A DNA stretch of 64,000 nt from a virus. The position numbers and the translations under genes were made by a program. Below, piece by piece: positions 4,134-63,298 of the stretch. Positions within the stretch are counted from its first letter, which is position 1. Every line of letters begins with the position of its first letter. The notes below the pieces were generated by a model. That model saw only the letters and a program-made list of their open reading frames with translations, was not told the DNA's origin and did no database searches. The stretch is taken from the IMG/VR virus record IMGVR_UViG_3300010049_000002; one strand, written 5' to 3'.

Positions 4134-4146
4134 CCCGTGACCCGGT
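4134..4146 (+). promoter_or_regulatory. heptad-repeat motif copy CCCGTGACCCGGT followed by TAGAAT
   Basis: Divergent intergenic gap 4078..4212; same motif at 10 other intergenic sites. Confidence 0.55.
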
Positions 4147-4176
4147 TAGAATTAGCGCTCAGGCCGGCAGGCCTCC

Positions 4177-4206
4177 TTGCCCCTGGCCCCCGCCAGCCGG
4201 TACAAT
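4177..4206 (+). promoter_or_regulatory. sigma70-like promoter candidate (TTGCCC-N18-TACAAT), possibly leaderless for ATG 4213
   Basis: TACAAT ends 6 nt before ATG 4213; no SD in between. Confidence 0.4.
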
Positions 4207-4212
4207 CCCGTC

Positions 4213-4626
4213 ATGAGACAAGGGTTCAATCCGAGCGACGGGACGTTCTATCTGGTCCACCTCGCGCGGGCCCTCGCTTCCTCCGCCACCAACCCGCCGA
4301 CCCCACCGACTCCGCCGCCGACCCCGCCCACCGAGCAGTTCATCACCGCCCGCGGGGTGCTGCCCGTCGCGTCGCCACCGACCATCCCGCCCCTGACCGA
4401 CGCCCCGCTCGTCTACACCCTGACCGGCGCTCTGCCCGGCGATTTCATCATCGCGACGCCCAGCCCCAGCGTGGGCGGCACCGTCGCCGGGGTCATCGTC
4501 GGGACGGCGGTCTGTATCTTCCCCGACCTGGTGCAGCTCGACCTCGTCAACGGGGTGCAGGGGAGCCCCCCGGCCGACGTGAGCGCGCTGGCGTTCGACC
4601 TCGTGGCCATCCGGACGACGACCTAG
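4213..4626 (+). CDS. small spike/fibre-family protein (137 aa) with shared N-terminal FNP..FY..LA.A module
   Basis: MRQGFNPSDGTFYLVHLARALA matches N-termini at 59984, 60883, 61289; Pro/Thr linker; C-terminal PGDF.. head similar to 60897..61289 product. Confidence 0.55.
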   Translation: MRQGFNPSDGTFYLVHLARALASSATNPPTPPTPPPTPPTEQFITARGVLPVASPPTIPPLTDAPLVYTLTGALPGDFIIATPSPSVGGTVAGVIVGTAVCIFPDLVQLDLVNGVQGSPPADVSALAFDLVAIRTTT

Positions 4627-4635
4627 GCCGACGAG

Positions 4636-5844
4636 CTAAAACCCGAGCGTCGCCTCGACGATGGCCAGCTCCGTGTCGAGCTCCCTCTTCGTGATGCCCG
4701 GCTTGTCAGCGATGAGCTTCTTCCGGAGCGCCGCACGCACTCCTGCGGGGTCGGAGAGCATCTCGTCGATGGCCGCGTCGACCTCTTCTTGCGTCTTCGG
4801 TGTCTTGCTGAAGTCCACGGGCTTCCTCATCGTGTAGTAGTTGGGCCTGCCAAACCTAGCATAATTCCAGCCCGGTGGGGCGGACTCATCGTTGAACGGC
4901 GACTCGGTCTCGACAACGAAGCCATTGCGCTGATAGAGGTCCCGGAGGCCTTCGCCGAAGCACTCGAGGTAGTTTACCCCCTCGTGCTCGATGGCGAACC
5001 GGAGCATCCGTTCACCCATGCCCTTTCGGCCGCCCGCGTTGAAAAGTGCGGTACCCTCGACCCGCCCATCACCGTGGTCCTTGACCGCGATGCCGGCGAG
5101 GCCGTCGGGCGCGAGCAGGCGAGCCTTCATCGCCTGGAGCTCCTTGACCGAATAGTGCGTGACGAAGCCCGACGCCGGGTTGCTCGGGCCCATCGCGCGC
5201 TCGAACGCCTTGCGGAACTCCTTGGCGGTGGCCCGCAGGACTTCCGGGTCGCCGGTGGGGATTGGATTGGGCTCGGTGAGCCCGACCGAGACCTCCTCCT
5301 TGAATGTGTATTCCTTCTTCTCGACAATCGAATAGCAACTCGATGTTCCAATCACCACGTGGTCGAGGAACATCACCCCCTTGCCATAGGGCTTGGTGGC
5401 TTGCTGTATCTGCCGCGTGAGCTGCTTGTCCGCGGTGCTCGGCCGAGCCTTCCCACTGGGGTGGTTGTGGGCCACGATGAAGCCCTCGCAGCCGGATTCT
5501 AGGACCGCCCTCAAAACGTCTTCGACCCCGACGACGGTTGAGCTCCTCTGCCCCCTCGCAACTTCGTAGGGAGGAGTCTTCAATTCACACCGCAAGTCGA
5601 GTGGCAAAACGAGAAAAACCTCCTGGTCCTCTTGCCGTAGGCGCGGGGCCAAGAAGGCATATACTTTTTCCGTATTATCGAGTGGGCCCACCCGCTTGGA
5701 GAGAGCCAGCGCCGCCTCATGGGTCTTGGGGTCACGGGACACGCGCGCGAAGGGGATGACGCTCTCATGGGGAGCCTCGTGGACCACCTCGACGCTCTCG
5801 GCGGGTTCCCGCGCCCCCGGGCCTTGGATGACGGTCTTGGCCAT
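4636..5844 (-). CDS. RadC-like JAB/JAMM domain fused to GNAT acetyltransferase-like domain (402 aa)
   Basis: JAMM signature HNHPSGKARPSTAD; later GNAT motif A-like GGRKGMGERMLRFAIE..GF; ATG start. Confidence 0.75.
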   Translation of the reverse strand: MAKTVIQGPGAREPAESVEVVHEAPHESVIPFARVSRDPKTHEAALALSKRVGPLDNTEKVYAFLAPRLRQEDQEVFLVLPLDLRCELKTPPYEVARGQRSSTVVGVEDVLRAVLESGCEGFIVAHNHPSGKARPSTADKQLTRQIQQATKPYGKGVMFLDHVVIGTSSCYSIVEKKEYTFKEEVSVGLTEPNPIPTGDPEVLRATAKEFRKAFERAMGPSNPASGFVTHYSVKELQAMKARLLAPDGLAGIAVKDHGDGRVEGTALFNAGGRKGMGERMLRFAIEHEGVNYLECFGEGLRDLYQRNGFVVETESPFNDESAPPGWNYARFGRPNYYTMRKPVDFSKTPKTQEEVDAAIDEMLSDPAGVRAALRKKLIADKPGITKRELDTELAIVEATLGF

Positions 5845-5867
5845 GGGCTAGAGGATACCACCATGCC

Positions 5868-6188
5868 TTGTTGTCAAGGGGCTCCCGGGGTACCCTGACC
5901 CGTATGGAAGCGGGTCTCGTCGAGCAGAACCTCATCGTTCTCAGCTCCCGGCCCTTCAGCCTCGGGGCCGAGCATCGCCCCTACATGGTCTTGAGCCGCG
6001 GAGGGAGCGGCCCCTTCAACTGCCAGAACTGCAAGGCCTTCTCCCAGGACGAGCACGGCTGCTATCGCTGCTCGAGCCCGGAGTTTCAGGCCTTCATGGG
6101 GACGAGCCTGCTGCCTGATGAAAATGGCCGCCCGCTCGACGACCCGACGCGGTCTTGTTCGGACTGGTACCAGCCACGAGAGAAGTAA
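5868..6188 (+). CDS. Cys-rich hypothetical protein; start uncertain (TTG 5868 or ATG 5904)
   Basis: CQNC..C..C..C pattern; ORF track. Confidence 0.4.
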   Translation: MLSRGSRGTLTRMEAGLVEQNLIVLSSRPFSLGAEHRPYMVLSRGGSGPFNCQNCKAFSQDEHGCYRCSSPEFQAFMGTSLLPDENGRPLDDPTRSCSDWYQPREK

Positions 6189-6196
6189 GAGTCCCG

Positions 6197-6847
6197 ATGC
6201 CCCAGCTAGACCCCGCCCAGGCCGCGACCTACTACCTGGCCCGCCTGCCCCGGCGTAGCTCTGGCCAGCCCGCCGCTTTCCGCTTTGGCGCCCTCGACCT
6301 CTCCGGGATGACCCTACCCAGTAGCCTGCCCTACACCATCGCGCGCATCACTCCGCGCAACCAGATACCCTACGGCATAGGACCGTGGACGATACCTGCG
6401 GGCGGCAAGTTTGAGGACACCATCGACCTCGGCGCCCTGACCAACGACGACATTGTCCTCGTGAATATCGCGCAGCTCCCGACGGCGGGTAGCTCTTTGA
6501 TACTAGACCCCATCGCCTACCAGTACCTGGGGACGGTGACCTACCGCATCCGCAATCCAACGACCACCGATGTCACGATTCCCGACCTCCAACGGGGAAT
6601 CATTCAGTTCGTTGTCGTCAGAAAGAACCCCGGCAGCTATCTCACGACAGTCCCGATGACCGTCCCGGGGGCCCAGCCGGGCGACCTCGTCTTCGCCTCG
6701 GGCCTGCTTGGAGATGGAATCGGGGTCGCGGGGGCGGCTGTGACTGGAGTTGATTCCGTTTCGGTGAGCCTGTTCAACCTGACCGACACCCCCCAGATGC
6801 TGGGAGCGGGGTCGCTTTTGAGCGTCATGGTCCTCTCGGCCGGATAG
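6197..6847 (+). CDS. spike/fibre-family protein (216 aa)
   Basis: Trimmed to MPQLDPAQAATYYLARL (family N-terminus); C-terminal QPGDLVF.. head resembling 4213 and 60897 products. Confidence 0.55.
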   Translation: MPQLDPAQAATYYLARLPRRSSGQPAAFRFGALDLSGMTLPSSLPYTIARITPRNQIPYGIGPWTIPAGGKFEDTIDLGALTNDDIVLVNIAQLPTAGSSLILDPIAYQYLGTVTYRIRNPTTTDVTIPDLQRGIIQFVVVRKNPGSYLTTVPMTVPGAQPGDLVFASGLLGDGIGVAGAAVTGVDSVSVSLFNLTDTPQMLGAGSLLSVMVLSAG

Positions 6848-6860
6848 CCCCCTCCTCGAG

Positions 6861-7142
6861 CTACTCACGGTGGGCCTCCCGCAGCCTCCGTTCGACGCGG
6901 AGTAGGACAAGGTAGCCGAGCAAATCCAGCTCCACGTCCTCGCCCGCGGCGCTCCCCCGGGCCAGCCTGGAGAGCTTGTCATCGAGCCTCACCCGAATCG
7001 CCTCATCGGGCGGGGCCTTGGAGAAGATACGCAGCGGCCGGAGGGCCGAATCACCGTACGCCTCGTTCTTGGCAAGAAGCAGCGCCTTGAGCGCGTCGCA
7101 CTCCTTCTCGATGAGGGCCCGGGTGGCTCCGTCGTCATCCAT
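6861..7142 (-). CDS. DUF1599/Nmad1-like (MazG-fold-like) small protein (93 aa), tentative
   Basis: KNEAYGDS..RIFS...IRVRLDDKLSRL resembles my memory of the DUF1599 pattern (K.hDYG .. DK..R). Confidence 0.45.
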   Translation of the reverse strand: MDDDGATRALIEKECDALKALLLAKNEAYGDSALRPLRIFSKAPPDEAIRVRLDDKLSRLARGSAAGEDVELDLLGYLVLLRVERRLREAHRE

Positions 7143-7368
7143 CGTCTTCCCCCTTGATGCCCCTCCAGGCGCTCTCGCCAGCCAGAAAGAAAACCGCGAT
7201 GGCCCCCAGGACCTCCGACCAGGTGGTGAAGCTCGAGGGCCTAGTCACCGCGGACCACCAGACGGGATGGCAATCGCCGTCGCCCCAGCGGCGATTAGGA
7301 GCCGCCAGGCCCTCATCGGCTCCCCCCTCGGTTGCCCCTCCGCCAGCGGTCGATGCCTTCCTTCGCAC
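7135..7368 (-). CDS. possible small membrane protein (77 aa)
   Basis: ORF track only; hydrophobic segment VLGAIAVFFLAG; start unclear. Confidence 0.25.
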   Translation of the reverse strand: MRRKASTAGGGATEGGADEGLAAPNRRWGDGDCHPVWWSAVTRPSSFTTWSEVLGAIAVFFLAGESAWRGIKGEDDG

Positions 7369-7801
7369 CCAGCAGGGCGGCTACCAACAATTCCGAGATG
7401 GCCTCGCCCAGGCTAGGCCTAGCCGGCGACTCATCTTCCCCTTCGAAGCCCGCCTCGTCGATGGATTGCCACAGCCGGGCATGGCTTGTTGGCCGGAAGG
7501 GGATGGGCTCATCTTCATCCGGGGTGGACTGAACTCGCCCAGCCAGTCGTTCGGCCGTCTCGCGGCGGTCCGCTTCGAATCGTTCCGTTTGGGTCAAAGG
7601 CTTCATGGGTACCTTCTCCGGGTCAATCAGGCTGATGGGTTGAAAGAGCGAACCGTCCATGGGCGGCGTCCGGCTGTCGCGCGCCAGCTGGACGCAGAAC
7701 ACGCAGAAGGGCCGGTGGACGTTGTCGACGGGGAGAAACCACTCGGCCGGCCGCCCGCAGGCCCGCCCCTCGATGGGCCAGTCACAAGTGAAGGTTGTCA
7801 T
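7313..7801 (-). CDS. hypothetical protein (162 aa)
   Basis: Trimmed to MTTFTCDW; ATGA overlap with upstream stop at 7798. Confidence 0.5.
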   Translation of the reverse strand: MTTFTCDWPIEGRACGRPAEWFLPVDNVHRPFCVFCVQLARDSRTPPMDGSLFQPISLIDPEKVPMKPLTQTERFEADRRETAERLAGRVQSTPDEDEPIPFRPTSHARLWQSIDEAGFEGEDESPARPSLGEAISELLVAALLGAKEGIDRWRRGNRGGSR

Positions 7802-8361
7802 GGCGCTCCGCCCTCCCCGTCGAGGAAGCTCTCCTCGGGCCGACCGAACTCCTTGTCGATGTCCTCGAGGCGCGGCCGAGTCCACAGCCGCCAGACCCAC
7901 CCCCGCAGGGTTGCCAAGGCGAGGCCCAGCAAGGCCCCGCCGAGCCCGATGGGCCAGAGCACCAAGGCCTTTGGAACCCACTCCATGCCCGCGCAGATTC
8001 CCAACGCCAGGACCGTCAGCCCGGTCCCCCAGCGCCAGACCATCCGGGTCTCCCGCTCCCGGAGCTGGGCCACCCGCTCAAACTTCCTGACGGCCTCCTT
8101 GGCCTGAGCCAGCTGCTTGAGGACCGCCCGCCGGGGGGGAATGAGCTCGAAGAGGGCCAAAGGGCCCTCGGTCGTGGGCCCATCGAGAGGCTTGGCCAGC
8201 TCCAGCACGGCCCCAAGCGTTTTCTCGGCGGAGAGGTACTCGCTCGCGCACCCATCGCAGATAAGCCGGGTTGCGAAGGCGTTCCGGAACACGTAGGAGA
8301 CAGGCTCCCCGCAGAGCCGGTCCCCCCTTCTTGTTTCGCATCGGAGCATGGCGGGCAGCAT
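7798..8361 (-). CDS. membrane protein (187 aa)
   Basis: Trimmed to MLPAMLRCE (TGATG coupling with upstream stop); two hydrophobic helices near C-terminus. Confidence 0.5.
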   Translation of the reverse strand: MLPAMLRCETRRGDRLCGEPVSYVFRNAFATRLICDGCASEYLSAEKTLGAVLELAKPLDGPTTEGPLALFELIPPRRAVLKQLAQAKEAVRKFERVAQLRERETRMVWRWGTGLTVLALGICAGMEWVPKALVLWPIGLGGALLGLALATLRGWVWRLWTRPRLEDIDKEFGRPEESFLDGEGGAP

Positions 8362-9572: not shown

Positions 9573-9838
9573 GGCTCACCTCCACGCCGCTCCAGGGCCT
9601 CCAGCGGCTCCTGATGCTTCTCGCCGGTCCACGGCGCGTGCCACTGCCCGCCGAAGAGCAGCGAGCCGCAGTCGGGGCACCACTCGGCCCGGAGGAACTC
9701 GTCGCGCTTCGCCTGGAAGCTCAAGGAGCCGTCGGCGCTCGGGCTAGGAATGAACCGGCCGATGGACAGACGCGCCCAGGGGCCAAACGGTGCGGGGTCG
9801 ATTTGGAAGGCCTTGTTGTGGCTACAGCTCGCGGTCAT
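9569..9838 (-). CDS. small WCPxCG zinc-ribbon paralog 3 (89 aa)
   Basis: MTASCSHNKAFQI...WCPDCGSL. Confidence 0.55.
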   Translation of the reverse strand: MTASCSHNKAFQIDPAPFGPWARLSIGRFIPSPSADGSLSFQAKRDEFLRAEWCPDCGSLLFGGQWHAPWTGEKHQEPLEALERRGGEP

Positions 9839-10059
9839 TCGGCTCCAGCCCCAATCCGCTCCATGAGCTCCCCGTAGAAATCATCTGCCAAATCAATGGT
9901 CATCGTCTTGGCGTCGCCCATGTCGAAGTCGTGGTCGTCGCCGGTCATGAAGGACGCTACTACCGTTGCCGCGGCCTCCAGGCACTCCAGCCAGTGGTGG
10001 GCCTGCTGGGCGGTGTGAAGCTCGGGGAAACCCACTTCCTCATCACTCTTCTTGGTCAT
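9835..10059 (-). CDS. acidic hypothetical protein (74 aa)
   Basis: AAGGAG SD upstream of ATG; first gene downstream of the repeat region. Confidence 0.55.
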   Translation of the reverse strand: MTKKSDEEVGFPELHTAQQAHHWLECLEAAATVVASFMTGDDHDFDMGDAKTMTIDLADDFYGELMERIGAGAE

Positions 10060-10726
10060 AGTTTCTTCTCCTTGGAAATGCCCTTACGGAACCAGCGATA
10101 CGCCACGAGACAGAACGTAGCCACACGTCACGGCAATAAGTTCTAGAGATGCCCTTACAGTACTGAGCGATACGCAACGAGACACGACGAAACGAGACAC
10201 TAAAAAACCGCGCCCTACAAAACCGCGCCGCACATAGCGGAACGCCACTGCGCGTAACCGACCCAACAGCGCGCGAGCCAACGCAACCTGACAAACGTCG
10301 CACCCGCACAGCCTCGAACATCCGCTTCTCCTCGTCGGAGACAAGTATTTTCATTTGGTTGGTTCGTTCCGCCATCTAGAAATGTCCTTACAGAACCGGA
10401 CTAGAGGTGACAGCACCACGCGCGACGACACATTGCCGCACCCCAATGAAACCCGCACTCTACTCGACGCAACCGTACGCAACGCAACGCCACAATACGG
10501 GACAGAACACCACCCAACGACATTGGAGTTCTTAGAAATGCCCTTACAGAACCGCACGAGGCATAACAGTGCCCCACGCAACCTGACACCGCCCAACGAC
10601 ACCCCGCGCAACCGGAAGCCACCTAACGTCACGCCACGTCATTATAAAAGCCATTACAGAAGATTGCCCGACGCGACACAACAACGCCATACGTAGCCAC
10701 ACCCGACAAAAGACACCGGAGGGGAC
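10060..10726. repeat. noncoding A+C-skewed region with five same-orientation copies of a 20-mer (AGAAATGCCCTTACAGAACC)
   Basis: Copies at 10074, 10145, 10378, 10534 and a degenerate copy at 10644. Extra shared words: CGCAACCTGAC at 10282 and 10577, ACGTAGCCACAC at 10115 and 10691. Plus strand is visibly T-poor. Confidence 0.8.
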
Positions 10727-14432: not shown

Positions 14433-14803
14433 GGGTCCCCCACTCCGGTTTCGCAGATGTCGCCCTTGTCGCCCGGAGCCCGTCGCCAGCCAGGGAGCTT
14501 CCGGTATTCGACGGGGAGCCCGGCCTCTTCGTACATCGCGAGGCTGGCTTTCATCCCGGGGGAGATGCCAAGGTCTGTGTAAGCGACCACTCTATCGCCG
14601 GTGATTCCCCAGACCTGCCCCGCGATAATCCCCAGGTGCCGCTCGAACCCCACCTCGTCGTCGAGGCACTGGGGGTAGAGCAGATGGGAAGCGAATGGGG
14701 CCTCGTCGTGGTGCATGAGGCAGTCCCGCATGCACTCCCGCGCATAGCGAAGATTCCGCTCCACATCCCCAGCGAAGGGGGTCTCCAGGATGACCCTCTT
14801 CAC
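14429..14803 (-). CDS. nucleoside 2-deoxyribosyltransferase-like/DUF4406-like protein (124 aa), tentative
   Basis: Short Rossmann-like N-terminus KRVILETPFAGD and general layout; weak recognition only. Confidence 0.4.
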   Translation of the reverse strand: MKRVILETPFAGDVERNLRYARECMRDCLMHHDEAPFASHLLYPQCLDDEVGFERHLGIIAGQVWGITGDRVVAYTDLGISPGMKASLAMYEEAGLPVEYRKLPGWRRAPGDKGDICETGVGDP

Positions 14804-15003
14804 CTTGCTAGCCCCGGAAAGAGGGGGAGGGTTCTCTCTTCAGCAGATAGCTTCAACCCGCTCAGCCTGGAGGCGTTTTCCTTGAGCAGGTTCAAATACG
14901 CGAGCTCGACGAGGCTACCCAAAAGCTCATTGGGCTTGACCCCCTCCTCGTCCGCCAATTCCTTGAGCCACCTGGATTGCCTTTCTGAGAGATAGACCAG
15001 CAT
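14800..15003 (-). CDS. small DNA-binding-like (RHH-like) protein (67 aa)
   Basis: MLVYLSERQSRWLKELADEEG.. beta-helix-helix-like start. Confidence 0.45.
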   Translation of the reverse strand: MLVYLSERQSRWLKELADEEGVKPNELLGSLVELAYLNLLKENASRLSGLKLSAEERTLPLFPGLAR

Positions 15004-16627: not shown

Positions 16628-16658
16628 GACACGGGTTCGCTCGCCCGTTACGGGTCAC
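16628..16658 (-). promoter_or_regulatory. heptad-motif copies (GACCCGTAAC..N..AACCCGTGTC on minus strand)
   Basis: About 70 nt upstream of ATPase start 16556. Confidence 0.5.
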
Positions 16659-16764
16659 ACCAATGGCACTCGGCCGTCGCCGCGTCAATGGGTCATCTGG
16701 AGCTTATTTTCTCCCCAGGGGAACGTCGATGGAACCGCTGGGGGATTTCTGGCGGGCTCATTCC

Positions 16765-16778
16765 AAACGGGTCACGGG
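16765..16778 (-). promoter_or_regulatory. heptad-repeat motif copy (CCCGTGACCCGTTT on minus strand)
   Basis: Noncoding stretch; followed by AGAAATCCCCC as at 37466. Confidence 0.5.
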
Positions 16779-17017: not shown

Positions 17018-17233
17018 GGCCGCCGCCGGGGAGGGGTTTTGTGGGGGCCCCGTCGGGGGGCTTGGCCCCTCTCGGGAAAGGCATGTCCCCCAAAAAGAAG
17101 TAGCCCCCCCGGTCTCGGTCCGGAGGGGCCACCCAGCGTAGGCGCCCAGGTCCGCAGGAAAGGCGGTCTCTCTCAACAATGGGGGAGAAGGAGCGACTGC
17201 GGGGAAGGTACGACACCCCCGAGCCGAGGTCAA

Positions 17234-17246
17234 CCCGTGACCCGTG
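17234..17246 (+). promoter_or_regulatory. heptad-repeat motif copy CCCGTGACCCGTG
   Basis: Plus-oriented although flanking genes are minus; followed by hairpins and a T-run. Confidence 0.45.
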
Positions 17247-17285
17247 CCGGGGCGGGATTTTGGGGGCCCCCGGGGGAACTAGAAC

Positions 17286-17346
17286 CTATCTTTCCACTGG
17301 GAATCCCACCAGATAGACACCCCCAGTGACGGGGGGCGCGATTTTT
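17286..17346 (+). ncRNA. candidate short structured transcript or terminator (two hairpins plus T-run)
   Basis: CTATCT..TGGGAATCCCA..AGATAG (17286..17316) then CCCCCAGTGACGGGGGG (17320..17336) then ATTTTT. Confidence 0.25.
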
Positions 17347-17527
17347 GGTCCCAAAGAGAATTATTAAGAGAGAGAGTGTATATAGGTATGGAAGAGAAAA
17401 TGGCGCCCTTGGCGCCCCCTACTATATTCCTCTTAGATTCTTAGAGAATAGAAGCGAAGTCATCTGCAAAAGTGGCCGCCCCTATCCCGCCCCCTGCCTG
17501 GGGGAGCACCCGAGCGGGGTCAGCCCT

Positions 17528-18955: not shown

Positions 18956-19112
18956 CACACCATCCTCCTTCCACGCCCGTAACGGGTCTGTGGAAATCTT
19001 GTTGAGAGCTCCTCCGGACCTCCTTCCCTTCAGAACCAGGACGCTACGCCGGGTTGACATTAGCCACCGGGTGCACATAACTCAAGCCACACACGGGATA
19101 CGGGTTGACGAT

Positions 19113-19298
19113 ATGCGGACGTCTACGAGGCAGGTGAGGACCCACTTCAACATGCGCCTGAGCGCCGAGGAGCGCTCCATGGTCGCGGAGCTTGCCCATG
19201 GACACGGCCTCAATTGGTCGGACTTCATTCGCCAGCTGATTCGGGCCGCATACTCCGCCCGGCATGTCGAAAGGAGAGCCCCCGATGAGGAACGGTAA
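19113..19298 (+). CDS. ribbon-helix-helix (MobC/CopG-like) protein (61 aa)
   Basis: THFNMRLSAEERSMVAELAHGHGLNWSDFIRQLI. Confidence 0.6.
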   Translation: MRTSTRQVRTHFNMRLSAEERSMVAELAHGHGLNWSDFIRQLIRAAYSARHVERRAPDEER

Positions 19299-24491: not shown

Positions 24492-24517
24492 GGGGCCTCT
24501 CGAACCGGCCAACGTAA

Positions 24518-24530
24518 CCCGTCACCCGTA
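24518..24530 (+). promoter_or_regulatory. heptad-repeat motif copy CCCGTCACCCGTA
   Basis: Divergent gap between 24491 and 24585. Confidence 0.5.
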
Positions 24531-24584
24531 TCAGGCTACCCCAAGCTTTCCCCGGGTGGTAGGCTCCTTGTCAAGGAGAACCTC

Positions 24585-31992: not shown

Positions 31993-32026
31993 CAATTACC
32001 GGTTAGTGCTTATCCATTAGTAATTG
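31993..32026. repeat. inverted repeat CAATTAC-N20-GTAATTG in an AT-richer gap (att or operator candidate)
   Basis: Direct reading; contains TTACCGGTTAG also seen after heptad motifs at 4141 and 58955. Confidence 0.5.
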
Positions 32027-32292: not shown

Positions 32293-32568
32293 ATGCTCTC
32301 CCGCGCACAACGACGCCTCATCCGCCAGACCATCGGGTCGGCCCCAGCCCCACCGCCGGCTCCGCTTGAGAGGGCGGGCTACTCAATAGCCGAGGCCGCT
32401 CAGGTGGTAGGCGTCCGGCCGGCGACGCTCCGGCGGATGGTCGAGCGCTACGCCCAGGTCGAGGGCGACGAGGTCGTGTCGCGCTTGACCGGCATGACCG
32501 TCAGAAAGCGCGGCGGCCTGGGCCGGTGGGTCGTTACCCTCGACCCGTGGCTGAAAGGCCCGGCCTAG
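32293..32568 (+). CDS. helix-turn-helix DNA-binding protein (91 aa), excisionase/regulator-like
   Basis: YSIAEAAQVVGVRPATLRRMVERY; converges on and overlaps serine recombinase stop. Confidence 0.5.
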   Translation: MLSRAQRRLIRQTIGSAPAPPPAPLERAGYSIAEAAQVVGVRPATLRRMVERYAQVEGDEVVSRLTGMTVRKRGGLGRWVVTLDPWLKGPA

Positions 32569-36979: not shown

Positions 36980-37345
36980 TTACTCCGTTGGGGGTTCTTC
37001 TTTGGGGGGATTGTCTTCGGGGGGTTCTTCTTTAGGGGGTTCTTCTTGGGGAATGTCTTCGGGAAGGGGTTCTTCCGGAATGTCTTCCCGGATGTGTTCT
37101 CGCGTCAGGTCCTCGAGCGTTTTCCCCCGAACGAGCTTGGCCTGAGCGCGGATGGCATTGGACACCGCTATCGTGCGGCACCGCCCCGGAGCCAGGCCGG
37201 AGCTGATGCTTTCGAAGAGGCAGAGGATTTCCAAGTCGCCCGCGATATCGTCCGGAAGCCAGACGTCGACCCGCACCAGGCCCGCGGCCCGGCGGCCTGT
37301 TTTCTTCTGGCGCAGCTCCCTCGTGTTCTTCTTCTTGGCGGCCAT
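36980..37345 (-). CDS. hypothetical protein with basic N-terminus and PKEEPP repeats (121 aa)
   Basis: ORF track; repetitive EEPPKEEPPEDNPPKEEPP tail. Confidence 0.55.
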   Translation of the reverse strand: MAAKKKNTRELRQKKTGRRAAGLVRVDVWLPDDIAGDLEILCLFESISSGLAPGRCRTIAVSNAIRAQAKLVRGKTLEDLTREHIREDIPEEPLPEDIPQEEPPKEEPPEDNPPKEEPPTE

Positions 37346-37432
37346 CGTCGGTCGACCCGTTTATAGCTCAGTCTGTCGCTTTCCAGCAAGGTTTACCCGT
37401 GTGGCCGGCGGATGGGCTTGTCAATGGCCTGA

Positions 37433-37445
37433 CCCGTGACCCTTG
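37433..37445 (+). promoter_or_regulatory. heptad-repeat motif copy CCCGTGACCCTTG (half-site ACCCGTGT at 37395)
   Basis: Divergent gap 37346..37477; TAGAAAT box at 37466 ends 5-6 nt before ATG 37478. Confidence 0.55.
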
Positions 37446-37477
37446 TCGGGACAGAGCCGGCGCGGTAGAAATCCCCC

Positions 37478-40066: not shown

Positions 40067-40156
40067 GATTCGCTCCGTTGGGTGAGAGAATAGCTCAGTC
40101 TGCCATGAGCCGGCCGCCCCCCCCGGCGCGGCTCAGCTCCCCCCCTTTGGGCCCCC

Positions 40157-43309: not shown

Positions 43310-43322
43310 CCCGTGACCCGTT
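43310..43322 (+). promoter_or_regulatory. heptad-repeat motif copy CCCGTGACCCGTT
   Basis: 52 nt upstream of integrase ATG; TATATT box at about 43354. Confidence 0.55.
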
Positions 43323-43373
43323 GCGGGCCGGCGCCCCCGGGAGTAGCCTAAGGTATATTAGCGCCAACACGGG

Positions 43374-47026: not shown

Positions 47027-47220
47027 GCAAACCGGGCCTTCTCCTCGGAGAGGCTCAAAACCCTCAAGGGGTTTCCCTGGAGCCAGGCCAAGTCCTGCTC
47101 TGCGAGGGGACGCCTCCAGCCGAGGGGGGAGACAGCCTGGAGCAGAGCAAATTGCCGGCCTCGAGCGACGCCGATGTTGGCCCGTCCTCCCCACCGTCGG
47201 AGCCGGCTGGTCCACCTCAT
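47023..47220 (-). CDS. hypothetical basic protein (65 aa)
   Basis: ATGA coupling at both ends (GroES stop 47217; next start 47026). Confidence 0.4.
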   Translation of the reverse strand: MRWTSRLRRWGGRANIGVARGRQFALLQAVSPLGWRRPLAEQDLAWLQGNPLRVLSLSEEKARFA

Positions 47221-47540
47221 GGCTCTTCGACAATCTGAGCCAGGATGGCTTCATCCCGGGCCATGAGGAGCTCTTCGCCGTTCAATTCCACCACCGGGAA
47301 GGGGTTCCGGGCATTGAACACCACCCTATCCCCGGGGCGTATGTCCGGCATCGGCCACCGGGTCCCGTCTTTCAGGCGCATCCCCCGACCCATCGCAATG
47401 ACGGTCCCAAAGGAAGAAGGCTTGCGGTAGGCCGGGGGGATGACCAGTCCCCCCCGGGAGAACGCTGAAGGTTCGTCCGGCCGAATGAGTATCCGGTTCT
47501 GGAGAAGCCCCAGGCGCTCAGGGTCGAAGGTGGCGGTCAT
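47217..47540 (-). CDS. groES: GroES/Cpn10-like co-chaperonin (107 aa)
   Basis: NRILIRPDE..SRGGLVIP..FGTVIAMGRG..IRPGDRVVF..GEELLMARDEAILAQI aligns by eye with GroES. Confidence 0.8.
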   Translation of the reverse strand: MTATFDPERLGLLQNRILIRPDEPSAFSRGGLVIPPAYRKPSSFGTVIAMGRGMRLKDGTRWPMPDIRPGDRVVFNARNPFPVVELNGEELLMARDEAILAQIVEEP

Positions 47541-47776
47541 GCGGCGGAGTCCTCTTTGCGATTGCGACTCCGGGCCTGGCCACCCTTGCGGCCAATCTCG
47601 GCCATATGGGCCCTGTCCGAAGCTACCTTCTCGCCGCCCTTCCTGCCCGCCGCCGCGGCCTCGCGTGTGGTGAACTCGTGGGCCTTGCCAGCGGCGTGGG
47701 CCGCAATCCCGCCCTTGCGGGCAATCTCGGCCTGCTTGGCGGGGTCCATCGACGCGAAGCCGCGGGGTTTGCTCAT
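47537..47776 (-). CDS. KGG-repeat general stress protein (YciG-like) (79 aa)
   Basis: GFASMDPAKQAEIARKGG..GRKGGEK..IGRKGGQA. Confidence 0.75.
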   Translation of the reverse strand: MSKPRGFASMDPAKQAEIARKGGIAAHAAGKAHEFTTREAAAAGRKGGEKVASDRAHMAEIGRKGGQARSRNRKEDSAA

Positions 47777-55619: not shown

Positions 55620-55696
55620 CACTGTTCCTCGAGTTGGCTTGCCTTGGGCTCCTTTCCTTTCAGAACCAGACGCTACGCTGGCCTTTAGTGTCTCCT

Positions 55697-55709
55697 GACG
55701 GGACACGGG
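55697..55709 (-). promoter_or_regulatory. heptad-repeat motif copy (CCCGTGTCCCGTC on minus strand, preceded by TTGACG)
   Basis: 78 nt upstream of ATG 55619. Confidence 0.5.
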
Positions 55710-55834
55710 CGTCAAGGACCGGGGGTTGACTTTCCCTTGGGAGCCCTGGGGGGCCTTGCCGGACGCGGCATACTCGGGGCCCTCCTCCCGGTTCTCGTCC
55801 AACATCCTTTGGTAGTCGGCCACCCCCCGATGGT

Positions 55835-55860
55835 GTCACGGGACACGGGTAAGGTCACGG
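55835..55860 (-). promoter_or_regulatory. heptad-repeat motif cluster (CCGTGACCTTACCCGTGTCCCGTGAC on minus strand)
   Basis: Gap after 55855 gene stop. Confidence 0.5.
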
Positions 55861-58602: not shown

Positions 58603-58611
58603 GGCGAGCCC

Positions 58612-58932: not shown

Positions 58933-58960
58933 ACGGGACAGGCTAGCGCACCTTGACTAA

Positions 58961-58979
58961 CCGGTCACGGGTCACGGGG
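58961..58979 (-). promoter_or_regulatory. heptad-repeat motif (CCCCGTGACCCGTGACCGG on minus strand) followed by TTAGTCA
   Basis: 29 nt upstream of ATG 58932. Confidence 0.55.
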
Positions 58980-59000
58980 TTCAGCCCGAGCCCCCCCGGG

Positions 59001-59984
59001 TCATCCCGCAATCAGCCCCTGGTCGCTGGACACGACCATCACGCACCCGCCCTGGAGGATGAGCGGGTTCACCGCGACGTCGCCGAAGCCCCAGAGAGTC
59101 ACCATCCACGTTCCTACGGGGAGGTTCTCGAAGACGGTGAAGTTGGTCACCGTCGTGTTGACGTCCGCCGGCATGTAGAGGCTCGTCTCCAGGCCCTGCG
59201 TCGTGTTTCCGGCCGTGTCTGACAGGTCCGGCCGGAGATAGACGTTCCCGGGGTTATTGGGGATGCCGGATTGGCGGTAGACCTGCGCCTGCGTCGTCAC
59301 CACCACCGTCTGGCCCTGGACCGTGGTCTGGAAGGCCTGGGCCTCGATGATGGGGGTGAGGTTGGTGAACGGGACGTCGGCGGGGTTCTGGTATTGAGGC
59401 AGAATCGTCGCCGCGCTCCCCCCACCAGTTCCCCCGGGCTCGGTGACAATCGCTTGGATGGCCCCGTAGCCGGCCTGCACGCGAACGGCGTTGGCAGCGG
59501 GCGTTCCAACCGGCGTCCCCGGGCTGGCCAGAGCGCTCACCGTGATGGTGTAGAGGCCGGCCGCGAGCGGGGTCGGGACGGCCCCCGGCTGAGCGCCTAC
59601 CGGTAGAACCGTGGAAGCTGTGAGCCAGATGAAGTCACCGGACTGGGAGATGATGCTCCGGGGGTTGGCCTCAATGGCGCTCGCTGGGTCGGCCTGGGGA
59701 GCGATGGAGAGGATGAGCTGAACCTCTTGCAAGACGGCATCCGGGTTGGTCGCCGTGACCCCCGCGAAGACGAAGATGCCGGAGATACCCTCATTCCCCG
59801 ACAGACTGATGTCGAGGCTGGCGATGGGCGTCAGGCCCGTGCTATCGATGGGGATGTCGTGGTCGTTGACGGCATAATACGTGGTGACGAGACCTCCGGC
59901 TGGGACTGGAGCCGAGGTCGCCGCGACGGCGAGGGCGGCCTTGTAGAAGGTGGCCGCAGTGGGATTGAACCCGGTGTTGCTCAT
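59001..59984 (-). CDS. spike/fibre-family protein (327 aa)
   Basis: MSNTGFNPTAATFYKAALAVAA family N-terminus; ATGA coupling. Confidence 0.65.
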   Translation of the reverse strand: MSNTGFNPTAATFYKAALAVAATSAPVPAGGLVTTYYAVNDHDIPIDSTGLTPIASLDISLSGNEGISGIFVFAGVTATNPDAVLQEVQLILSIAPQADPASAIEANPRSIISQSGDFIWLTASTVLPVGAQPGAVPTPLAAGLYTITVSALASPGTPVGTPAANAVRVQAGYGAIQAIVTEPGGTGGGSAATILPQYQNPADVPFTNLTPIIEAQAFQTTVQGQTVVVTTQAQVYRQSGIPNNPGNVYLRPDLSDTAGNTTQGLETSLYMPADVNTTVTNFTVFENLPVGTWMVTLWGFGDVAVNPLILQGGCVMVVSSDQGLIAG

Positions 59985-60883
59985 GAGGTGATGAGCACCT
60001 GCAAGATGGCCTCGCCCGGTGCCACCGCGAGTTCGTCCGTAGGCGTACCGACAACATCGGAAGCCACGACCGTTCGAACCGTGTGCGGACCCGCGGGCAC
60101 ATTCGTGTAGGCGCCCACAATCGGGAACCACGCCTCCCCTCCGACGCCGATATTCGCGGTATAAATCGGTCCGGCGATTTCCCCAGGCAGCCCGCGGTCG
60201 AGGAACGTCTGGGCGGTGGCAAAGCCCGCGGCGACGCCTTGCGATATGATTCGGACGTTGCCCGACGCGAAGATGGTGGACGGGGCAGCCAGTTGGATGT
60301 TGTCCACCGCGGCGATGATGGTCGCCGTGGGCGTCACCGGGGTGATGTCGGCGTTGCTGTTCGACAGCGCGACAACAGGGCTCGCCGCCCCCGGGGTGTT
60401 GTCGATGTCCAGGAGCAGCAGGCTCGTGCTCAAGTCGAAGACCCGGAGGTCATTCCCCGCCCCGCTGAGCAGCACCGTGTAGGCGATGTTCGGGTCGAGG
60501 TCGAAGGCCAGCGTCGATACGATGTTGGCCGAGAGGGTCGGGGGAATCACCCAGTCTGAGATGGTCTTCTCGGCGACGATGGTCCCGGTATCGTCCGCGA
60601 TGGCGAGCTGGAACCACGGCTCTGCGCTGTTGGCGGAGCTGATATTCTGATAGGGGATGATTCCGAACGCGACCACCGTTCTCGCATTGGGCGACGAGGG
60701 CAGCGCAATCTGTGCGATGACCGTGGGCGGTGGGGTGTTGGAGAGGTAGAGGTCCGACCCGTTGTCGTTGGTCGCGAAGAGGGGGATGACTCGGCTACCG
60801 GTGGTGACCGGTGTGCCCGCCTGCGCCAAAGCGAGGGCGAGCTCGGCCCGATAAAAAGTCGCCGGATTCGAAATCTGGGTCAT
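59981..60883 (-). CDS. spike/fibre-family protein (300 aa)
   Basis: MTQISNPATFYRAELALALAQAG. Confidence 0.65.
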   Translation of the reverse strand: MTQISNPATFYRAELALALAQAGTPVTTGSRVIPLFATNDNGSDLYLSNTPPPTVIAQIALPSSPNARTVVAFGIIPYQNISSANSAEPWFQLAIADDTGTIVAEKTISDWVIPPTLSANIVSTLAFDLDPNIAYTVLLSGAGNDLRVFDLSTSLLLLDIDNTPGAASPVVALSNSNADITPVTPTATIIAAVDNIQLAAPSTIFASGNVRIISQGVAAGFATAQTFLDRGLPGEIAGPIYTANIGVGGEAWFPIVGAYTNVPAGPHTVRTVVASDVVGTPTDELAVAPGEAILQVLITS

Positions 60884-60896
60884 GGCTTGCTCCTTT

Positions 60897-61289
60897 TCAG
60901 ACGAGCGTGGGGTTGCCCCGGACGAGCAGGAAATCGAACGGCTGGTCGAGCAACGTTCCGCCGGGGTCGGTGTTGTCGTTCTGGATGGCCAGGATGAGAA
61001 TCCCGGGCGCTGGAACATAGACGCTCGTCACCCACAAGCCGGCCGGTAGGGCCCCGAAGCTTCCCTGCCAGAGGACGAAGTCGCCGGGCATCACAATCGG
61101 CACCGTGAAGGTGAGGTTTGGCTGGTAGCCGGGCAGGATTGTGTTCGGGAAGCCGTTTGCCTGGACGGCCTTGGCGATGAGAAGCTGGGGCGCGTTCGCA
61201 GCCGCAGCGGCGGCGGCCGAGGCCTGCGCCAGGGCGACCTGCACCTTGTAGAAGATGGCGCTATTCGGGTTGAAGTCCTGGGTCGTCAT
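60897..61289 (-). CDS. small spike/fibre-family protein (130 aa)
   Basis: MTTQDFNPNSAIFYKVQVALAQASAA; PGDFVL.. head. Confidence 0.6.
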   Translation of the reverse strand: MTTQDFNPNSAIFYKVQVALAQASAAAAAAANAPQLLIAKAVQANGFPNTILPGYQPNLTFTVPIVMPGDFVLWQGSFGALPAGLWVTSVYVPAPGILILAIQNDNTDPGGTLLDQPFDFLLVRGNPTLV

Positions 61290-61296
61290 CGGGTCC

Positions 61297-61914
61297 TCAT
61301 AGTTTGGGCGCAGCCATCTGCGTCTGAATCTGCATGGTCATGGGCTTGCCCTTGGCGACCCCGGACGTTGCGTCGATGAGGGTCATCGAAACCGTGACCG
61401 TGCCCTCCCCCTGGGCGGTGATGACCATCCAGTCGGGGCCCCCCTGGCTGGTGAAAAAACTGCCCGAGATGATGTCGGTCTGGAACTGGTAGCGGGTGTT
61501 CATGTCCGAAGGCGGCCCCGGGGGGACAACGGCGAGCGTCTTTCCGAATGCGAGCTGCGAGCCTTGAGCCATCAGCCCGCCGGCGACTATCGGGGTCATG
61601 GGGACCTGGAAGTCCGCCTGGGGGACCGGCTGCGTGATGGTGACCGTCATCGGGATGGAGTCTTCCGGCCCGCTCGGGGTCGTGTGGCTGTAGTCGACCT
61701 CGAGCTGCCCAACGGCCGTGGCCTGAATCCAGAACCAGTTCTGGGCCTTCTGGGAGGTGAAGAAAGGCGCCGCCGGGGGCTTGGAACTGAACTCCCACCA
61801 GTTGCCGGCGCCCGGGTCTCCGGGCTGGTTGATGAGCAAAGACTGCCCGACGGCCAGCTGCGCCGGGGGCCCGGCGGCGACGGAGATGGAAGCATTGGGG
61901 GGCACGGTGGACAC
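61297..61914 (-). CDS. virion-module protein with internal duplication (205 aa)
   Basis: PFFTSQKAQNWFWIQATAVGQLEV vs SFFTSQGGPDWMVITAQGEGTVTV. Confidence 0.6.
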   Translation of the reverse strand: MSTVPPNASISVAAGPPAQLAVGQSLLINQPGDPGAGNWWEFSSKPPAAPFFTSQKAQNWFWIQATAVGQLEVDYSHTTPSGPEDSIPMTVTITQPVPQADFQVPMTPIVAGGLMAQGSQLAFGKTLAVVPPGPPSDMNTRYQFQTDIISGSFFTSQGGPDWMVITAQGEGTVTVSMTLIDATSGVAKGKPMTMQIQTQMAAPKL

Positions 61915-61937
61915 CGCTAGGCCTGCGGGGGCTGCAC

Positions 61938-62390
61938 CTATGGTGGTACCGGCGTGATGGCGGTCGCACCATAGGGCAAGGTCGTGGGGATGGGCATCTG
62001 CGTACCGTTGTAGGTGAGGGTCACATGCCAGTCGGAACCCACCAGAGTCGCGCTGTTGGTCCAGGTCCAGGGAGAGCCGACCTGCTGGACCTCCGATGAG
62101 ATGACAGATTGCCCCCCCTGCCCGACGACGGACGCGGGGATGGTCAGGACGTAGCTCGTCCCGGGAATCAGGGCGTTCAGCGGGGTCTGGAACGTGGACC
62201 CACCGCCGCCGGCATCATTGGGATTCGGGTTCGGACCGCTACCCCCATTGGACCCCGGGGATGTCTTCCGGGTGGCCAGATAAATCGCTACCCCGCCGAC
62301 GAGCAGAACCCCGACACCGATGGCAATCCAGACCTCGGTACTTGGATTCTCCTCCCGGCTCCGGGCTCGGGCTAGATGTCGGCGGGGCAT
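61938..62390 (-). CDS. EENP-TM anchored protein (150 aa)
   Basis: MPRRHLARARSREENPSTEVWIAIGVGVLLVGGVAIYLA. Confidence 0.6.
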   Translation of the reverse strand: MPRRHLARARSREENPSTEVWIAIGVGVLLVGGVAIYLATRKTSPGSNGGSGPNPNPNDAGGGGSTFQTPLNALIPGTSYVLTIPASVVGQGGQSVISSEVQQVGSPWTWTNSATLVGSDWHVTLTYNGTQMPIPTTLPYGATAITPVPP

Positions 62391-62391
62391 C

Positions 62392-63279
62392 TCAATTCAA
62401 GCTGGTGATGGGGGTGTGGCTGGGGAAGGACCCATACGCCGCGGCGGTGACTCCCGCGGAGCTGACCGGCGTTCCCCCCTGACCGTTCCACTGCGCGGTG
62501 GCGGTGAACTGGCCGGTGGGGATGGTCAGGAGCGCGGAGATGCTCCCAGGCAACGTGCTGATATCGCCCGAGCCCGCGTAGGAGATGATTTGAATCGCGC
62601 CCCAGCCGAAATTCTTGAGCGTCTGGGCCATCTCGCCCGCGCTCGGGGGGCCCAGGGTGCTGGAAGCCCCAGGGATGGTCCCGATGAAGGTGTACTGCTG
62701 CAGATTGCCCAGGCCCTCGGTGCCAACCAAGCTTCCCGCCTGGGGAGCCGTCGTGGGCTGCGCGGTCATCCCCGCCTGGGCCACCGGGTTCGTTGGCGGG
62801 AAGCTTCCGGCAATCGCCTGGACCCCGATGCCGCTTGGAACGGGGGCGCTTGGCTGGCCCCAGACTGCCGTGGCCACCAAGTTGGTGCTGGTCGTCGCCA
62901 AAGCGGGTTGTTGCGTAGCCGGGTCCACCGGCATCGTTTGAATCCCCTGCGCCTGGGGCCCAAACCAGATGATTTGCACGTTGGTCCAGCCGTTGGCCAC
63001 GAGGACGTTCGCCTGGGTCGCGGCATCGACCACCCCGGCGGAGACTGGAACGCTGAAGGTGTAGCTGTTTCCCTGGATGAACCAGGAAACTGGGCTGCCC
63101 TGGGTCTCGGTCACCGTCCCGCTTGGCAGGGGAGTCGACTGCGGCCCATAGCCTCCCTGAGAAGGTCCGTATCCAGGCAGGCCCGCCTGGGATTGCCGCG
63201 AGGTCATGACCACCGCGCCCACGACCAGGGCCGCCAACGCAGCGCCGCCCACCCAAAGCATGGTCTTTTCGTCTGCCAT
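62392..63279 (-). CDS. N-terminally anchored protein with internal duplication (295 aa)
   Basis: TM MLWVGGAALAALVVGAVVM; NSYTFSVP..ANGWTNVQIIWFG vs QQYTFIGT..NFGWGAIQIISYAG. Confidence 0.6.
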   Translation of the reverse strand: MADEKTMLWVGGAALAALVVGAVVMTSRQSQAGLPGYGPSQGGYGPQSTPLPSGTVTETQGSPVSWFIQGNSYTFSVPVSAGVVDAATQANVLVANGWTNVQIIWFGPQAQGIQTMPVDPATQQPALATTSTNLVATAVWGQPSAPVPSGIGVQAIAGSFPPTNPVAQAGMTAQPTTAPQAGSLVGTEGLGNLQQYTFIGTIPGASSTLGPPSAGEMAQTLKNFGWGAIQIISYAGSGDISTLPGSISALLTIPTGQFTATAQWNGQGGTPVSSAGVTAAAYGSFPSHTPITSLN

Positions 63280-63298
63280 CCCGTCACCCGTTACCGGT
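63280..63298 (+). promoter_or_regulatory. heptad-repeat motif CCCGTCACCCGTTACCGGT
   Basis: Divergent gap; abuts ATG of 62392..63279. Confidence 0.5.

Follow-up and report, generated by a model that had tools for sequence, protein, structure and literature searches.

The question raised by this locus is why so many of the gaps between the genes of one viral genome should hold the same short tandem repeat. The window analysed here is the whole 64,000-nt stretch of DNA from IMG/VR virus record IMGVR_UViG_3300010049_000002, and the repeat consists of two CCCGT words 7 bases apart, CCCGT(G/C)(A/T)CCCGT, which together cover 12 bases. As judged from its sequence, its location and its counterparts in related loci, there is about an even chance that the sites are, as predicted here, operators of one sequence-specific regulator encoded by the phage, which probably acts mainly as a repressor.

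The window contains 8 exact matches to CCCGTSWCCCGT against 0.08 expected; 0 of 100 shuffles reached 8, and dinucleotide-preserving shuffles gave at most one exact copy each. When up to one mismatch was allowed, 17 matches were found against 2.97 expected. Gene boundaries were the stored gene calls of the source contig (109 gene products), converted to window coordinates, and on these boundaries all eight exact copies fall within the 8.3% of the window that is intergenic. The one-mismatch search adds the intergenic positions 4134, 19093 and 37433, together with 58960, which is a third register of the site at 58967. Eleven intergenic sites result (4134+, 16767-, 17234+, 19093-, 24518+, 37433+, 43310+, 55698-, 55838-, 58967- and 63280+; Table 1), and six of the eight divergent, promoter-bearing gaps hold one. 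The five coding matches, each with one mismatch (5734-, 17735-, 36264-, 38076+ and 49634+), are near the chance expectation of about 3. A k-mer test that was blind to the motif returned ACCCGT as the top intergenic-enriched 6-mer, with 18 of its 42 copies between genes (p 2e-9). Single CCCGT words are common in the window (198 copies) and show no intergenic enrichment once the 22 pentamers of the repeats are set aside.

At each of the eleven sites two pentamers recur with a 7-bp period, and 58967 and 63280 have a third, degenerate unit besides. Conservation is confined to the 12-bp core and a weak preference for A just upstream. The flanks are nearly free of information, and therefore the sites are not copies of a longer repeat.

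A preliminary description of the window had placed the motif in noncoding gaps, and this is borne out, as is the contrast in frequency, with coding matches at chance level and strong intergenic enrichment. Its site list had overlooked 19093-19104 and had counted 16628-16658 as a tandem heptad, which is actually a palindrome, CCCGTTACGGG (16644-16654), accompanied by a single CCCGT at 16631. Three copies had been said to continue as (A)CCGGT-TAGnnn. This is so at 58957, but the word at 4141 is CCCGGTTAG, and at 63291 the sequence goes on as ACCGGTGAG, with no TAG. A word said to be shared with position 31997 was recovered, ACCGGTTAG being exact at 58957 and 31998 and nowhere else, and so was the word reported to follow two copies, AGAAATCCCCC, which is exact at 16740 and 37467. 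Distances to the next gene start, given earlier as 12-100 nt, are in fact 31, 33, 34, 55, 61, 78, 104, 137, 210 and 218 nt. The observation that ten sites share the direction of the next gene proved mostly automatic, as six sites lie in divergent gaps, where either orientation faces a gene. In same-direction gaps, four of five sites are co-oriented (16767, 55698, 55838 and 58967) and 17234, which has no plus-strand gene after it, is opposed; this is not significant. The equivalent repeat of the relatives, described below, is co-oriented in three cases and anti-oriented in three. A rule that orientation follows transcription was accordingly rejected as unproven.

The promoters recognisable in the window are of the sigma-70 type and of a high-GC kind, TTGnnn followed by a spacer of 17-18 nt and TAnnnT. 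Five first-in-operon genes (4213, 5844, 5904, 37478 and 58932) lack a Shine-Dalgarno sequence and have their ATG 6-7 nt after a TAnnn(T/A) hexamer, an arrangement that suggests leaderless mRNAs and a host in which such messages are in use. For gene 4177-4626, ATG 4213 is a better fit than the stored start (TTG 4177), which is probably wrong.

The repeats stand in several relations to these elements. A TAnnn[TA] hexamer occurs 21-23 nt from the repeat edge in 6 of 22 site flanks against a background of 3.9% (p 1.5e-4), a value that becomes ~1e-3 to 1e-2 when corrected for the choice of the 21-23 nt interval after inspection of the data. Forward members of this class are 37433 (TAGAAA), 43310 (TAGCCT), 55698 (TAGCGT), 55838 (TACCAA) and 58967 (TAGCCT); the reverse member is 17234, at which ACGGGTCACGGG abuts a leftward TTGACC-17-TACCTT. 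In this class the repeat covers approximately -35 to -46 and shares 1-2 nt with the -35 hexamer, and at 37433 and 58967 the hexamer stands 6-7 nt ahead of an ATG that lacks a Shine-Dalgarno sequence, the leaderless arrangement. At 17234 and 19093, TTGAC follows the reverse-complemented repeat without a gap; from base composition we estimate a probability of ~2e-5 that two of eleven sites would show this by chance. A distance of 1-2 nt separates the end of the repeat from a -10-like TAGAAT or TGGAAT at 4134 and 16767. Sites 24518 and 63280 share a downstream box, AGGCTACC(C/G)C, followed after 17-18 nt by TAG(G/C)(C/G)T. The nearest TAnnnT or TAG hexamer thus stands at no constant distance from the motif, the values falling in classes of 1-2, 21-23, 30 and 34-35 nt.

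The motif was also considered as a -35 element or another part of the core promoter, and this was rejected on the variable spacing, on the plausible -35 that lies on the strand opposite the repeat at two sites, and on the position of 55698 within a spacer. Of the promoter or operator code proposed in the preliminary description, the operator part is retained, since the motif is specific to the element, noncoding and placed in promoter gaps, and it is not itself a core promoter. On sequence grounds, the sites behave as operators of a transcription factor generally do: they overlap or abut promoter elements and keep their position while their flanks diverge.

A relative made it possible to view one site against a conserved background. 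The gap upstream of the gene for a basic 568-aa protein aligns with the homologous gap in related locus L021 in three conserved blocks, namely a TTGAC(G/A) block, a GA(C/G)ACT block exactly 17 nt later, and the leader; L021 reads TTGACA-17-GAGACT. The 17-nt spacer is not conserved, and its first 12 nt are CCCGTGTCCCGT in the window and unrelated sequence in L021. To judge from this alignment, the repeat at 55698 has come to occupy the spacer of a promoter that is conserved in other respects, a classical position for a repressor operator. It follows from the footprint that TAGCGT, first taken as the -10 hexamer for 55698, may not be the hexamer used.

Two inverted copies, CCCGT(A/T)ACGGG, were also found, against 0.03 expected. 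Each belongs to the 5' region of one of the two replication operons with an upstream direct repeat, those of the primase and of AAA_24. The inverted copies therefore suggest the pentamer rather than the 12-mer as the unit of recognition.

The CCCGT repeat is absent from every related locus fetched, including L015/L006, L016 and L017, whose primases are 50-55% identical to that of the window; hence the earlier view of the motif as element-specific is upheld. Neither the CCCGT repeat nor the repeat described next was present in the fetched parts of L021, L022 and L023, the closest relatives in the capsid region. In L015 (identical to L006), L016 and L017 a different repeat, GTCTC-N6-GTCTC, has 2-4 exact copies each per ~21 kb, and it has no copy in the window. 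In L015, where ~0.04 copies would be expected (our own estimate), there are four, all of them in gaps. In all three loci a copy of the GTCTC repeat lies in the gap where the primase operon and the divergent one adjoin, matching window site 19093, and in L015 and L017 one lies upstream of AAA_24, matching the places of 16767 and 17234. Its spacings also correspond to the 21-23 nt and 1-2 nt classes of the window: in L015 it stands 22 nt from TAGGCC/TAGGGC and 2 nt from TAGAAG, and at window site 4134 the distance to TAGAAT is 1 nt. Copies abutting start codons occur at L015 2873 and L017 12461. Wholesale replacement of the motif at positions that are kept would be expected of a phage regulator co-evolving with its operators; a signal determined by the host would not be expected to behave in this way.

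In the proposed mechanism, one subunit or dimer of the regulator would read each CCCGT pentamer, with adjacent units 7 bp apart in two or three tandem copies and inverted at 16644 and 18976. Since the sites lie on or against the -35 element or the spacer of sigma-70-type promoters, an occupied site should control initiation by the host RNA polymerase. The regulator would silence together the primase operon, the AAA_24/DNA polymerase operon, the integrase gene, and internal virion and tail promoters, and would thus be a genome-wide silencer comparable to an immunity repressor with dispersed sites (PMC9283540) or to omega (PMC9499535). Our guess is that it is a small ribbon-helix-helix (RHH) protein. 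Repression is favoured because 55698 lies in a spacer and 4134 and 16767 nearly abut -10-like hexamers, because inverted copies lie in 5' regions and copies abut start codons (63280, L015 2873 and L017 12461), and because the sites span replication, integrase and virion operons.

One candidate for this role is the RHH-like gene 19134-19298 next to site 19093 (Table 1). Its product has weak NikA-like and DUF6290 matches in Pfam, below the cut-off. A structure model (pLDDT, the predicted local distance difference test score, 78) has a strand-forming N-terminus and two helices, the helix-helix part of an RHH monomer, and its top matches in PDB are the RHH proteins TacA, AtaR, Arc and CopG (E 0.14-1). 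For the product of 36980-37345 there are weak RHH hints in Pfam; the single-sequence model was uninformative (pLDDT 49), and no homologue was found among 5.8 billion proteins. The DNA-binding signal of the helix-turn-helix gene 32293-32568 was likewise weak and below the Pfam threshold. Pfam searches with 70 further small proteins gave nothing, and no match to omega was obtained with Pfam, with PHROGs (~1/4 of the proteome) or by structure.

Several points weigh against this interpretation. The inverted copies have pentamer centres 6 bp apart, not 7 bp, and the footprint against a relative covers one intergenic region only. A tblastn search for the small DNA-binding candidates in those parts of the relatives that were fetched gave no orthologues, so that the candidates are orphans, and the assignment of 19134-19298 to the RHH class is a weak one, depending on sub-threshold Pfam hits and weak fold matches. 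The -10 and -35 elements were called as consensus matches in a phage whose host is not identified, and the 21-23 nt class was, as stated, defined after the fact. Finally, the subset of sites centred on -40 with weak -35 hexamers is equally expected of a class II activator.

Binding of such an activator, of class II or similar to lambda CII, which would recruit host RNA polymerase to timed replication, integrase and virion promoters, is a somewhat unlikely alternative. It would explain the five forward flanks and one reverse flank in which the repeat edge is 21-23 nt from a -10-like hexamer and the centre near -40, the weakness of the -35 hexamers there (TTGCGG, TTGTCG and GTGACC), and the abutment of the reverse-complemented repeat to TTGAC at 17234 and 19093, with the chance value estimated above; the direct repeat bound by lambda CII likewise straddles the -35 element at integrase and antisense promoters. 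However, 55698 lies in the spacer of a conserved promoter, and 4134 and 16767 end 1-2 nt before a -10-like hexamer; with a 17-nt spacer, neither place suits an activator. The inverted copies are downstream of promoters, in 5' regions, the equivalent repeat of the relatives abuts start codons at the two places named, and a single activator that turns on integrase, replication and virion genes jointly would be unusual. A dual regulator is possible. That the motif marks a dedicated class of promoters, read by a phage sigma factor or RNA polymerase or by an alternative sigma factor of the host, is highly improbable, even though it is asymmetric, strongly conserved and upstream of many transcription units, and in a subset of sites stands at a fixed distance from a TAG-type hexamer. 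Its distance to -10-like hexamers varies over the four classes listed, a gap of 21-23 nt exceeds that between the -35 and -10 elements of the sigma-70 family, the flanks outside the 12 bp are almost without information, and the relatives keep the -10-like elements yet carry a different repeat. The window also has no gene long enough for a single-subunit phage RNA polymerase, its largest product being the DNA polymerase of 900 aa. No sigma factor was matched at the Pfam cut-off in ~95 of the 109 products, the 14 unscanned being mostly virion and tail-region genes, and divergent orphan factors are possible; the sole trace is Sigma70_r4_2 (E 0.041) in the helix-turn-helix (HTH) protein of 32293-32568.

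Iterons for a replication initiator, for example a P4-type primase-helicase, would give the repeat quite another role, with 17234 lying in the origin and the other sites titrating the initiator or coupling replication to transcription. Directly after the primase gene, ~100 nt from site 17234, comes an AT-rich stretch (17340-17460), and the syntenic regions of the relatives hold clustered iterons flanking an AT-rich core, two sets of which resemble the motif: CCCGTCACC in L017 (eight copies, including a tandem pair at an 8-bp period) and ACCCGTCCCT in L016 (five copies). Iterons would be expected to cluster around an AT-rich unwinding region, but only 17234 is near 17340-17460 and the other ten sites are dispersed; the motif spreads over 59 kb with one or two sites per gap. 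In L015, L016 and L017 the origin iterons and GTCTC-N6-GTCTC differ in sequence, and exact CCCGTCACC occurs in L017 only in the origin-like region. The role of iterons was rated improbable, the resemblance notwithstanding, because the origin-like gap holds a single two-unit site and the iterons of the relatives differ from their promoter-gap repeat. A non-functional repeat, whether a mobile or recombination-prone remnant or an effect of base composition, is scarcely credible. Nothing specific speaks for it beyond the GC content of the phage (65%) and the abundance of CCCGT, whereas shuffles give at most one exact copy, no exact copy falls in the coding 92% of the window, the flanks show no conservation, and single CCCGT words outside the repeats are not enriched between genes.

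Operators of a phage regulator, the interpretation preferred here, can be compared with three known systems. Operators of omega have the heptad consensus WATCACW and occur naturally in three arrays of 7-10 units. Omega (ParB of pSM19035) is an RHH protein that binds contiguous 7-bp heptads, direct and inverted (PMC9499535); the earlier statement that 7-bp phasing is unusual for a dimeric repressor is valid for HTH dimers, and omega is a well-studied precedent for such phasing. The window resembles the omega system in its contiguous 7-bp direct units, in the occurrence of the unit in inverted arrangement as well, in the presence of sites at several promoters of one replicon, consistent with coordinated control, and in the small RHH-like gene that adjoins one site (19093). 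It differs in that the sequence is unrelated, the eleven sites are dispersed and have 2-3 units each, the inverted copies have a 6-bp centre spacing, and no partition ATPase was found in the window.

Stoperators of Cluster A mycobacteriophages have a consensus of the GGTGGMTGTCAAG type. They are asymmetric 13-bp sites, more than 20 in number, bound by an L5 gp71-type repressor that is a monomer with two domains (PMC9283540). Like them, the motif of the window is short, asymmetric and present at many sites over the genome of a temperate-looking phage, both in promoter regions and in short gaps within operons, and it is phage-specific and differs among relatives as stoperators differ with immunity (PMC9283540). 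Unlike them, it is a 12-bp tandem pentamer with eleven sites and an unrelated consensus, and no gp71-like protein was recognised. The orientation of stoperators follows transcription; in the window four of the five informative sites are co-oriented, six are uninformative, and the relatives are mixed.

Lambda CII binds a TTGC-N6-TTGC direct repeat at the -35 element of PRE, PI and PaQ, three sites with a 10-bp period. The window likewise has a direct repeat at or overlapping the -35 element, with one copy at the integrase promoter and one facing against its flanking genes, but its period is 7 bp, its eleven sites include replication and virion operons, and one of them is inside a promoter spacer. 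A further parallel is with the GTCTC-N6-GTCTC repeat of L015/L006, L016 and L017, itself undescribed, which is similarly confined to gaps and gene edges, in the same syntenic gaps and with matching spacings, and which has another pentamer and an 11-bp instead of a 7-bp period. The type of mechanism proposed is not new: operator motifs specific to one phage and dispersed over its genome are known, and so are operators with 7-bp phasing.

Table 1. Repeat sites, adjoining promoter-like elements and candidate regulator genes in the window. Hexamers and promoters were assigned by consensus; numbers between hexamers are spacer lengths in nt.
Feature	Coordinates	Strand	Sequence and context
Repeat site	4134..4147	+	CCCGTGA CCCGGTT; divergent gap 4078-4176; TAGAAT next at 4147-4152
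Sigma-70-like promoter			TTGCCC(4177)-18-TACAAT(4206) with leaderless-type ATG 4213; 31 nt downstream of site 4134
Repeat site	16767..16778	-	CCCGTGACCCGT; 210 nt upstream of AAA_24 (Sak4-like) start 16556
Elements downstream of site 16767	16765-16760; 16750-16740	-	TGGAAT (16765-16760) after 1 nt; AGAAATCCCCC at 16750-16740
Inverted pentamers	16644..16654		CCCGTTACGGG; 5' region of AAA_24 gene; extra single CCCGT at 16631, minus strand
Repeat site	17234..17245	+	CCCGTGACCCGT; origin-like gap downstream of primase gene
Promoter-like neighbour of site 17234	17233-17205	-	abutting TTGACC (17233-17228)-17-TACCTT (17210-17205), leftward
Inverted pentamers	18976..18986		CCCGTAACGGG; 21 nt upstream of primase start codon 18955
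Repeat site	19093..19104	-	CCCGTATCCCGT; divergent gap between primase operon and operon led by small RHH-like gene
Neighbour of site 19093	19105-19110	+	abutting TTGACG
Repeat site	24518..24529	+	CCCGTCACCCGT; divergent gap 24492-24584; gene start 24585 with Shine-Dalgarno
Elements downstream of site 24518	24533-24540; 24560-24565		AGGCTACC at 24533-24540; TAGGCT at 24560-24565
Repeat site	37433..37444	+	CCCGTGACCCTT; overlaps TTGTCG (37443-37448), 17-nt spacer, TAGAAA (37466-37471), leaderless-type ATG 37478
Single CCCGT words	37356; 37396		in gap of site 37433
Repeat site	43310..43321	+	CCCGTGACCCGT; upstream of tyrosine integrase gene (43383); overlaps TTGCGG (43321-43326)-17-TAGCCT (43344-43349)
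Repeat site	55698..55709	-	CCCGTGTCCCGT; first 12 nt of 17-nt spacer between TTGACG (55715-55710) and GACACT (55692-55687)
Gene downstream of site 55698	start 55619		basic 568-aa protein
Repeat site	55838..55849	-	CCCGTGTCCCGT; gap 55620-55854, which also houses 55698; overlaps GTGACA (55839-55834); TACCAA (55814-55809) 23 nt downstream
Three-unit site	58957..58978	-	CCCGTGA CCCGTGA CCGGTTA(G); 68-nt gap 58933-59000
Promoter-like elements in and after site 58957..58978			GTGACC (58968-58963) within site, 17-nt spacer, TAGCCT (58945-58940), 7 nt, leaderless-type ATG 58932
Three-unit site	63280..63300	+	CCCGTCA CCCGTTA CCGGTGA; abuts start codon (63279) of first gene of long leftward virion operon
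Elements downstream of site 63280	63300-63307; 63327-63332		AGGCTACC at 63300-63307; TAGCGT at 63327-63332; next plus-strand gene start 63396
RHH-like gene, candidate binder	19134..19298	+	48-54 aa; start 19134 or 19152, 30-47 nt from site 19093
Other candidate binder	14800-15003	-
Other candidate binder	36980-37345	-
Other candidate binder, HTH gene	32293-32568	+

Other elements were noted in the gaps of the window. An identical 13-mer, CAGACTGAGCTAT, occurs on the minus strand at 37363-37375 and 40090-40102, 16-24 nt before the leftward gene starts 37345 and 40066, and probably marks a further class of promoters that lacks the CCCGT repeat. Also on the minus strand (19048-19020 and 55677-55650), the block GCGTAGCGTC(C)TGGTTCTGAA(A/G)GGAA is common to the 5' regions of two genes, for the primase and for the basic 568-aa protein, and is a duplicated promoter or leader segment. 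At 31993-32026, in the divergent gap beside the HTH gene 32293-32568, there is an AT-rich 34-bp element with inverted 7-nt ends, CAATTACCGGTTAGTGCTTATCCATTAGTAATTG, which contains ACCGGTTAG and looks like a separate operator. GTCAAGG was considered as a second motif and is not enriched in the window (14 copies against 8.8 expected), its intergenic copies being in part -35 TTGAC read on the other strand and in part Shine-Dalgarno contexts; GAGACAC is not enriched in the window either. Rfam gave no match at the gathering threshold.

The gap downstream of the primase gene (17018-17527), with its AT-rich core at 17340-17460, is syntenic with the iteron-bearing regions of the relatives, in which inward-facing iterons surround an AT-rich core: CCCGTCACC in L017 (11537-11805, eight copies), ACCCGTCCCT in L016 (11798-12105, five copies) and ACGGCATGT in L015 (11504-11750, six copies). 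The window gap has terminator-like hairpins on the minus strand (17416-17402 and 17134-17098) and the plus strand (17320-17336). The leftward TTGACC-17-TACCTT (17233-17205) and the strong terminator at 17134-17098 could yield an RNA of ~105 nt (fold z -1.9). On the plus strand, the sequence that follows 17234 folds no better than shuffles.

The window was traced via its DNA polymerase product to ENA metagenome contig k141_7338773 (65,174 bp), of which it is a rotated copy, the rotation being deduced from the coordinates of three contig pieces. Since the two ends of this contig overlap, the phage genome is circular or terminally redundant, with a length of ~65,051 bp. The ~1,051 bp outside the window (between 64000 and 1; L004 3552-4602) contain 0 copies of the tandem CCCGT motif. 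Recognisable replication genes are those for a family A DNA polymerase fused to a UDG domain, a DUF5906 P4-type primase and the AAA_24 (Sak4-like) ATPase. Genes for a PDDEXK exonuclease, RadC, an SNF2 helicase, a serine recombinase, a tyrosine recombinase and GroES were also recognised, and a long leftward block without annotatable members probably comprises the virion genes.

The phage is temperate-looking and belongs to an undescribed lineage with no close annotated relative. A near-identity search of the annotated phage collection gave no match, a protein search of annotated phages with the DNA polymerase gave best matches of at most 25% identity, and PHROGs, applied to ~1/4 of the proteome, returned replication-type and unknown families only. 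A scan of IMG/VR with the primase found no relative, that of metagenome contigs a few short related loci, and that of genome contigs only matches of ~30% identity, from which no host could be identified. The primase relatives with 50-55% identity are on contigs of 60-80 kb that share the gene order of the window. Relatives are closer in the structural region than in the replication region, with 68-72% identity in the protein beside the basic 568-aa protein, and capsid-region relatives number more than 200.

The GroES (Cpn10) gene of the window stands beside a KGG-repeat stress-protein gene (47217-47776), and the pair is also present in L021 and L022. A perfect 9-nt tandem repeat, GGAGCCATT, in 5-6 copies (1126-1177), encodes an (MAP)n run within the 489-aa gene 1053-2522. 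The AAA_24 (Sak4-like) gene of L017 (13375-15294) codes for 639 aa with a faint LAGLIDADG match, which suggests an intein or a homing-endonuclease insertion. The 667 nt at 10060-10726 have no called gene, a low GC content and a strong strand skew, and include a ~23-nt repeat, GGTTC(T/C)GTAAGG(G/A)CATTTC on the minus strand, in 3-4 copies, the last of which forms the 5' region of gene 9835-10059. Small paralogous genes that were not called may lie there, or else an array with a regulatory or partition function.

With regard to the protein that would read the CCCGT sites, it is conceivable, though rather unlikely, that the binder is new: an omega-like protein taking one pentamer per dimer with 7-bp phasing on CCCGT di- or tri-heptads, a master switch of a large soil-phage family (~65-80 kb) in which binder and motif are swapped wholesale as a pair. 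The new specificity may have been recruited from origin iterons, as the CCCGTCACC words of the L017 origin-like region would illustrate. If this were true, GTCTC with its 11-bp period would have given way to CCCGT with a 7-bp period while the promoter architecture stayed fixed, and immunity specificity would be evolving by replacement. If the operator function of the sites is confirmed, the motif would map the regulated promoters of a lineage without a cultured member, without a known host and nearly without annotatable regulators, and its 12 bp would serve as bait for finding the regulator. The exchange of operator specificity at promoter positions that are kept, as the relatives suggest, would make this family a tractable case for the evolution of phage immunity and regulatory specificity.

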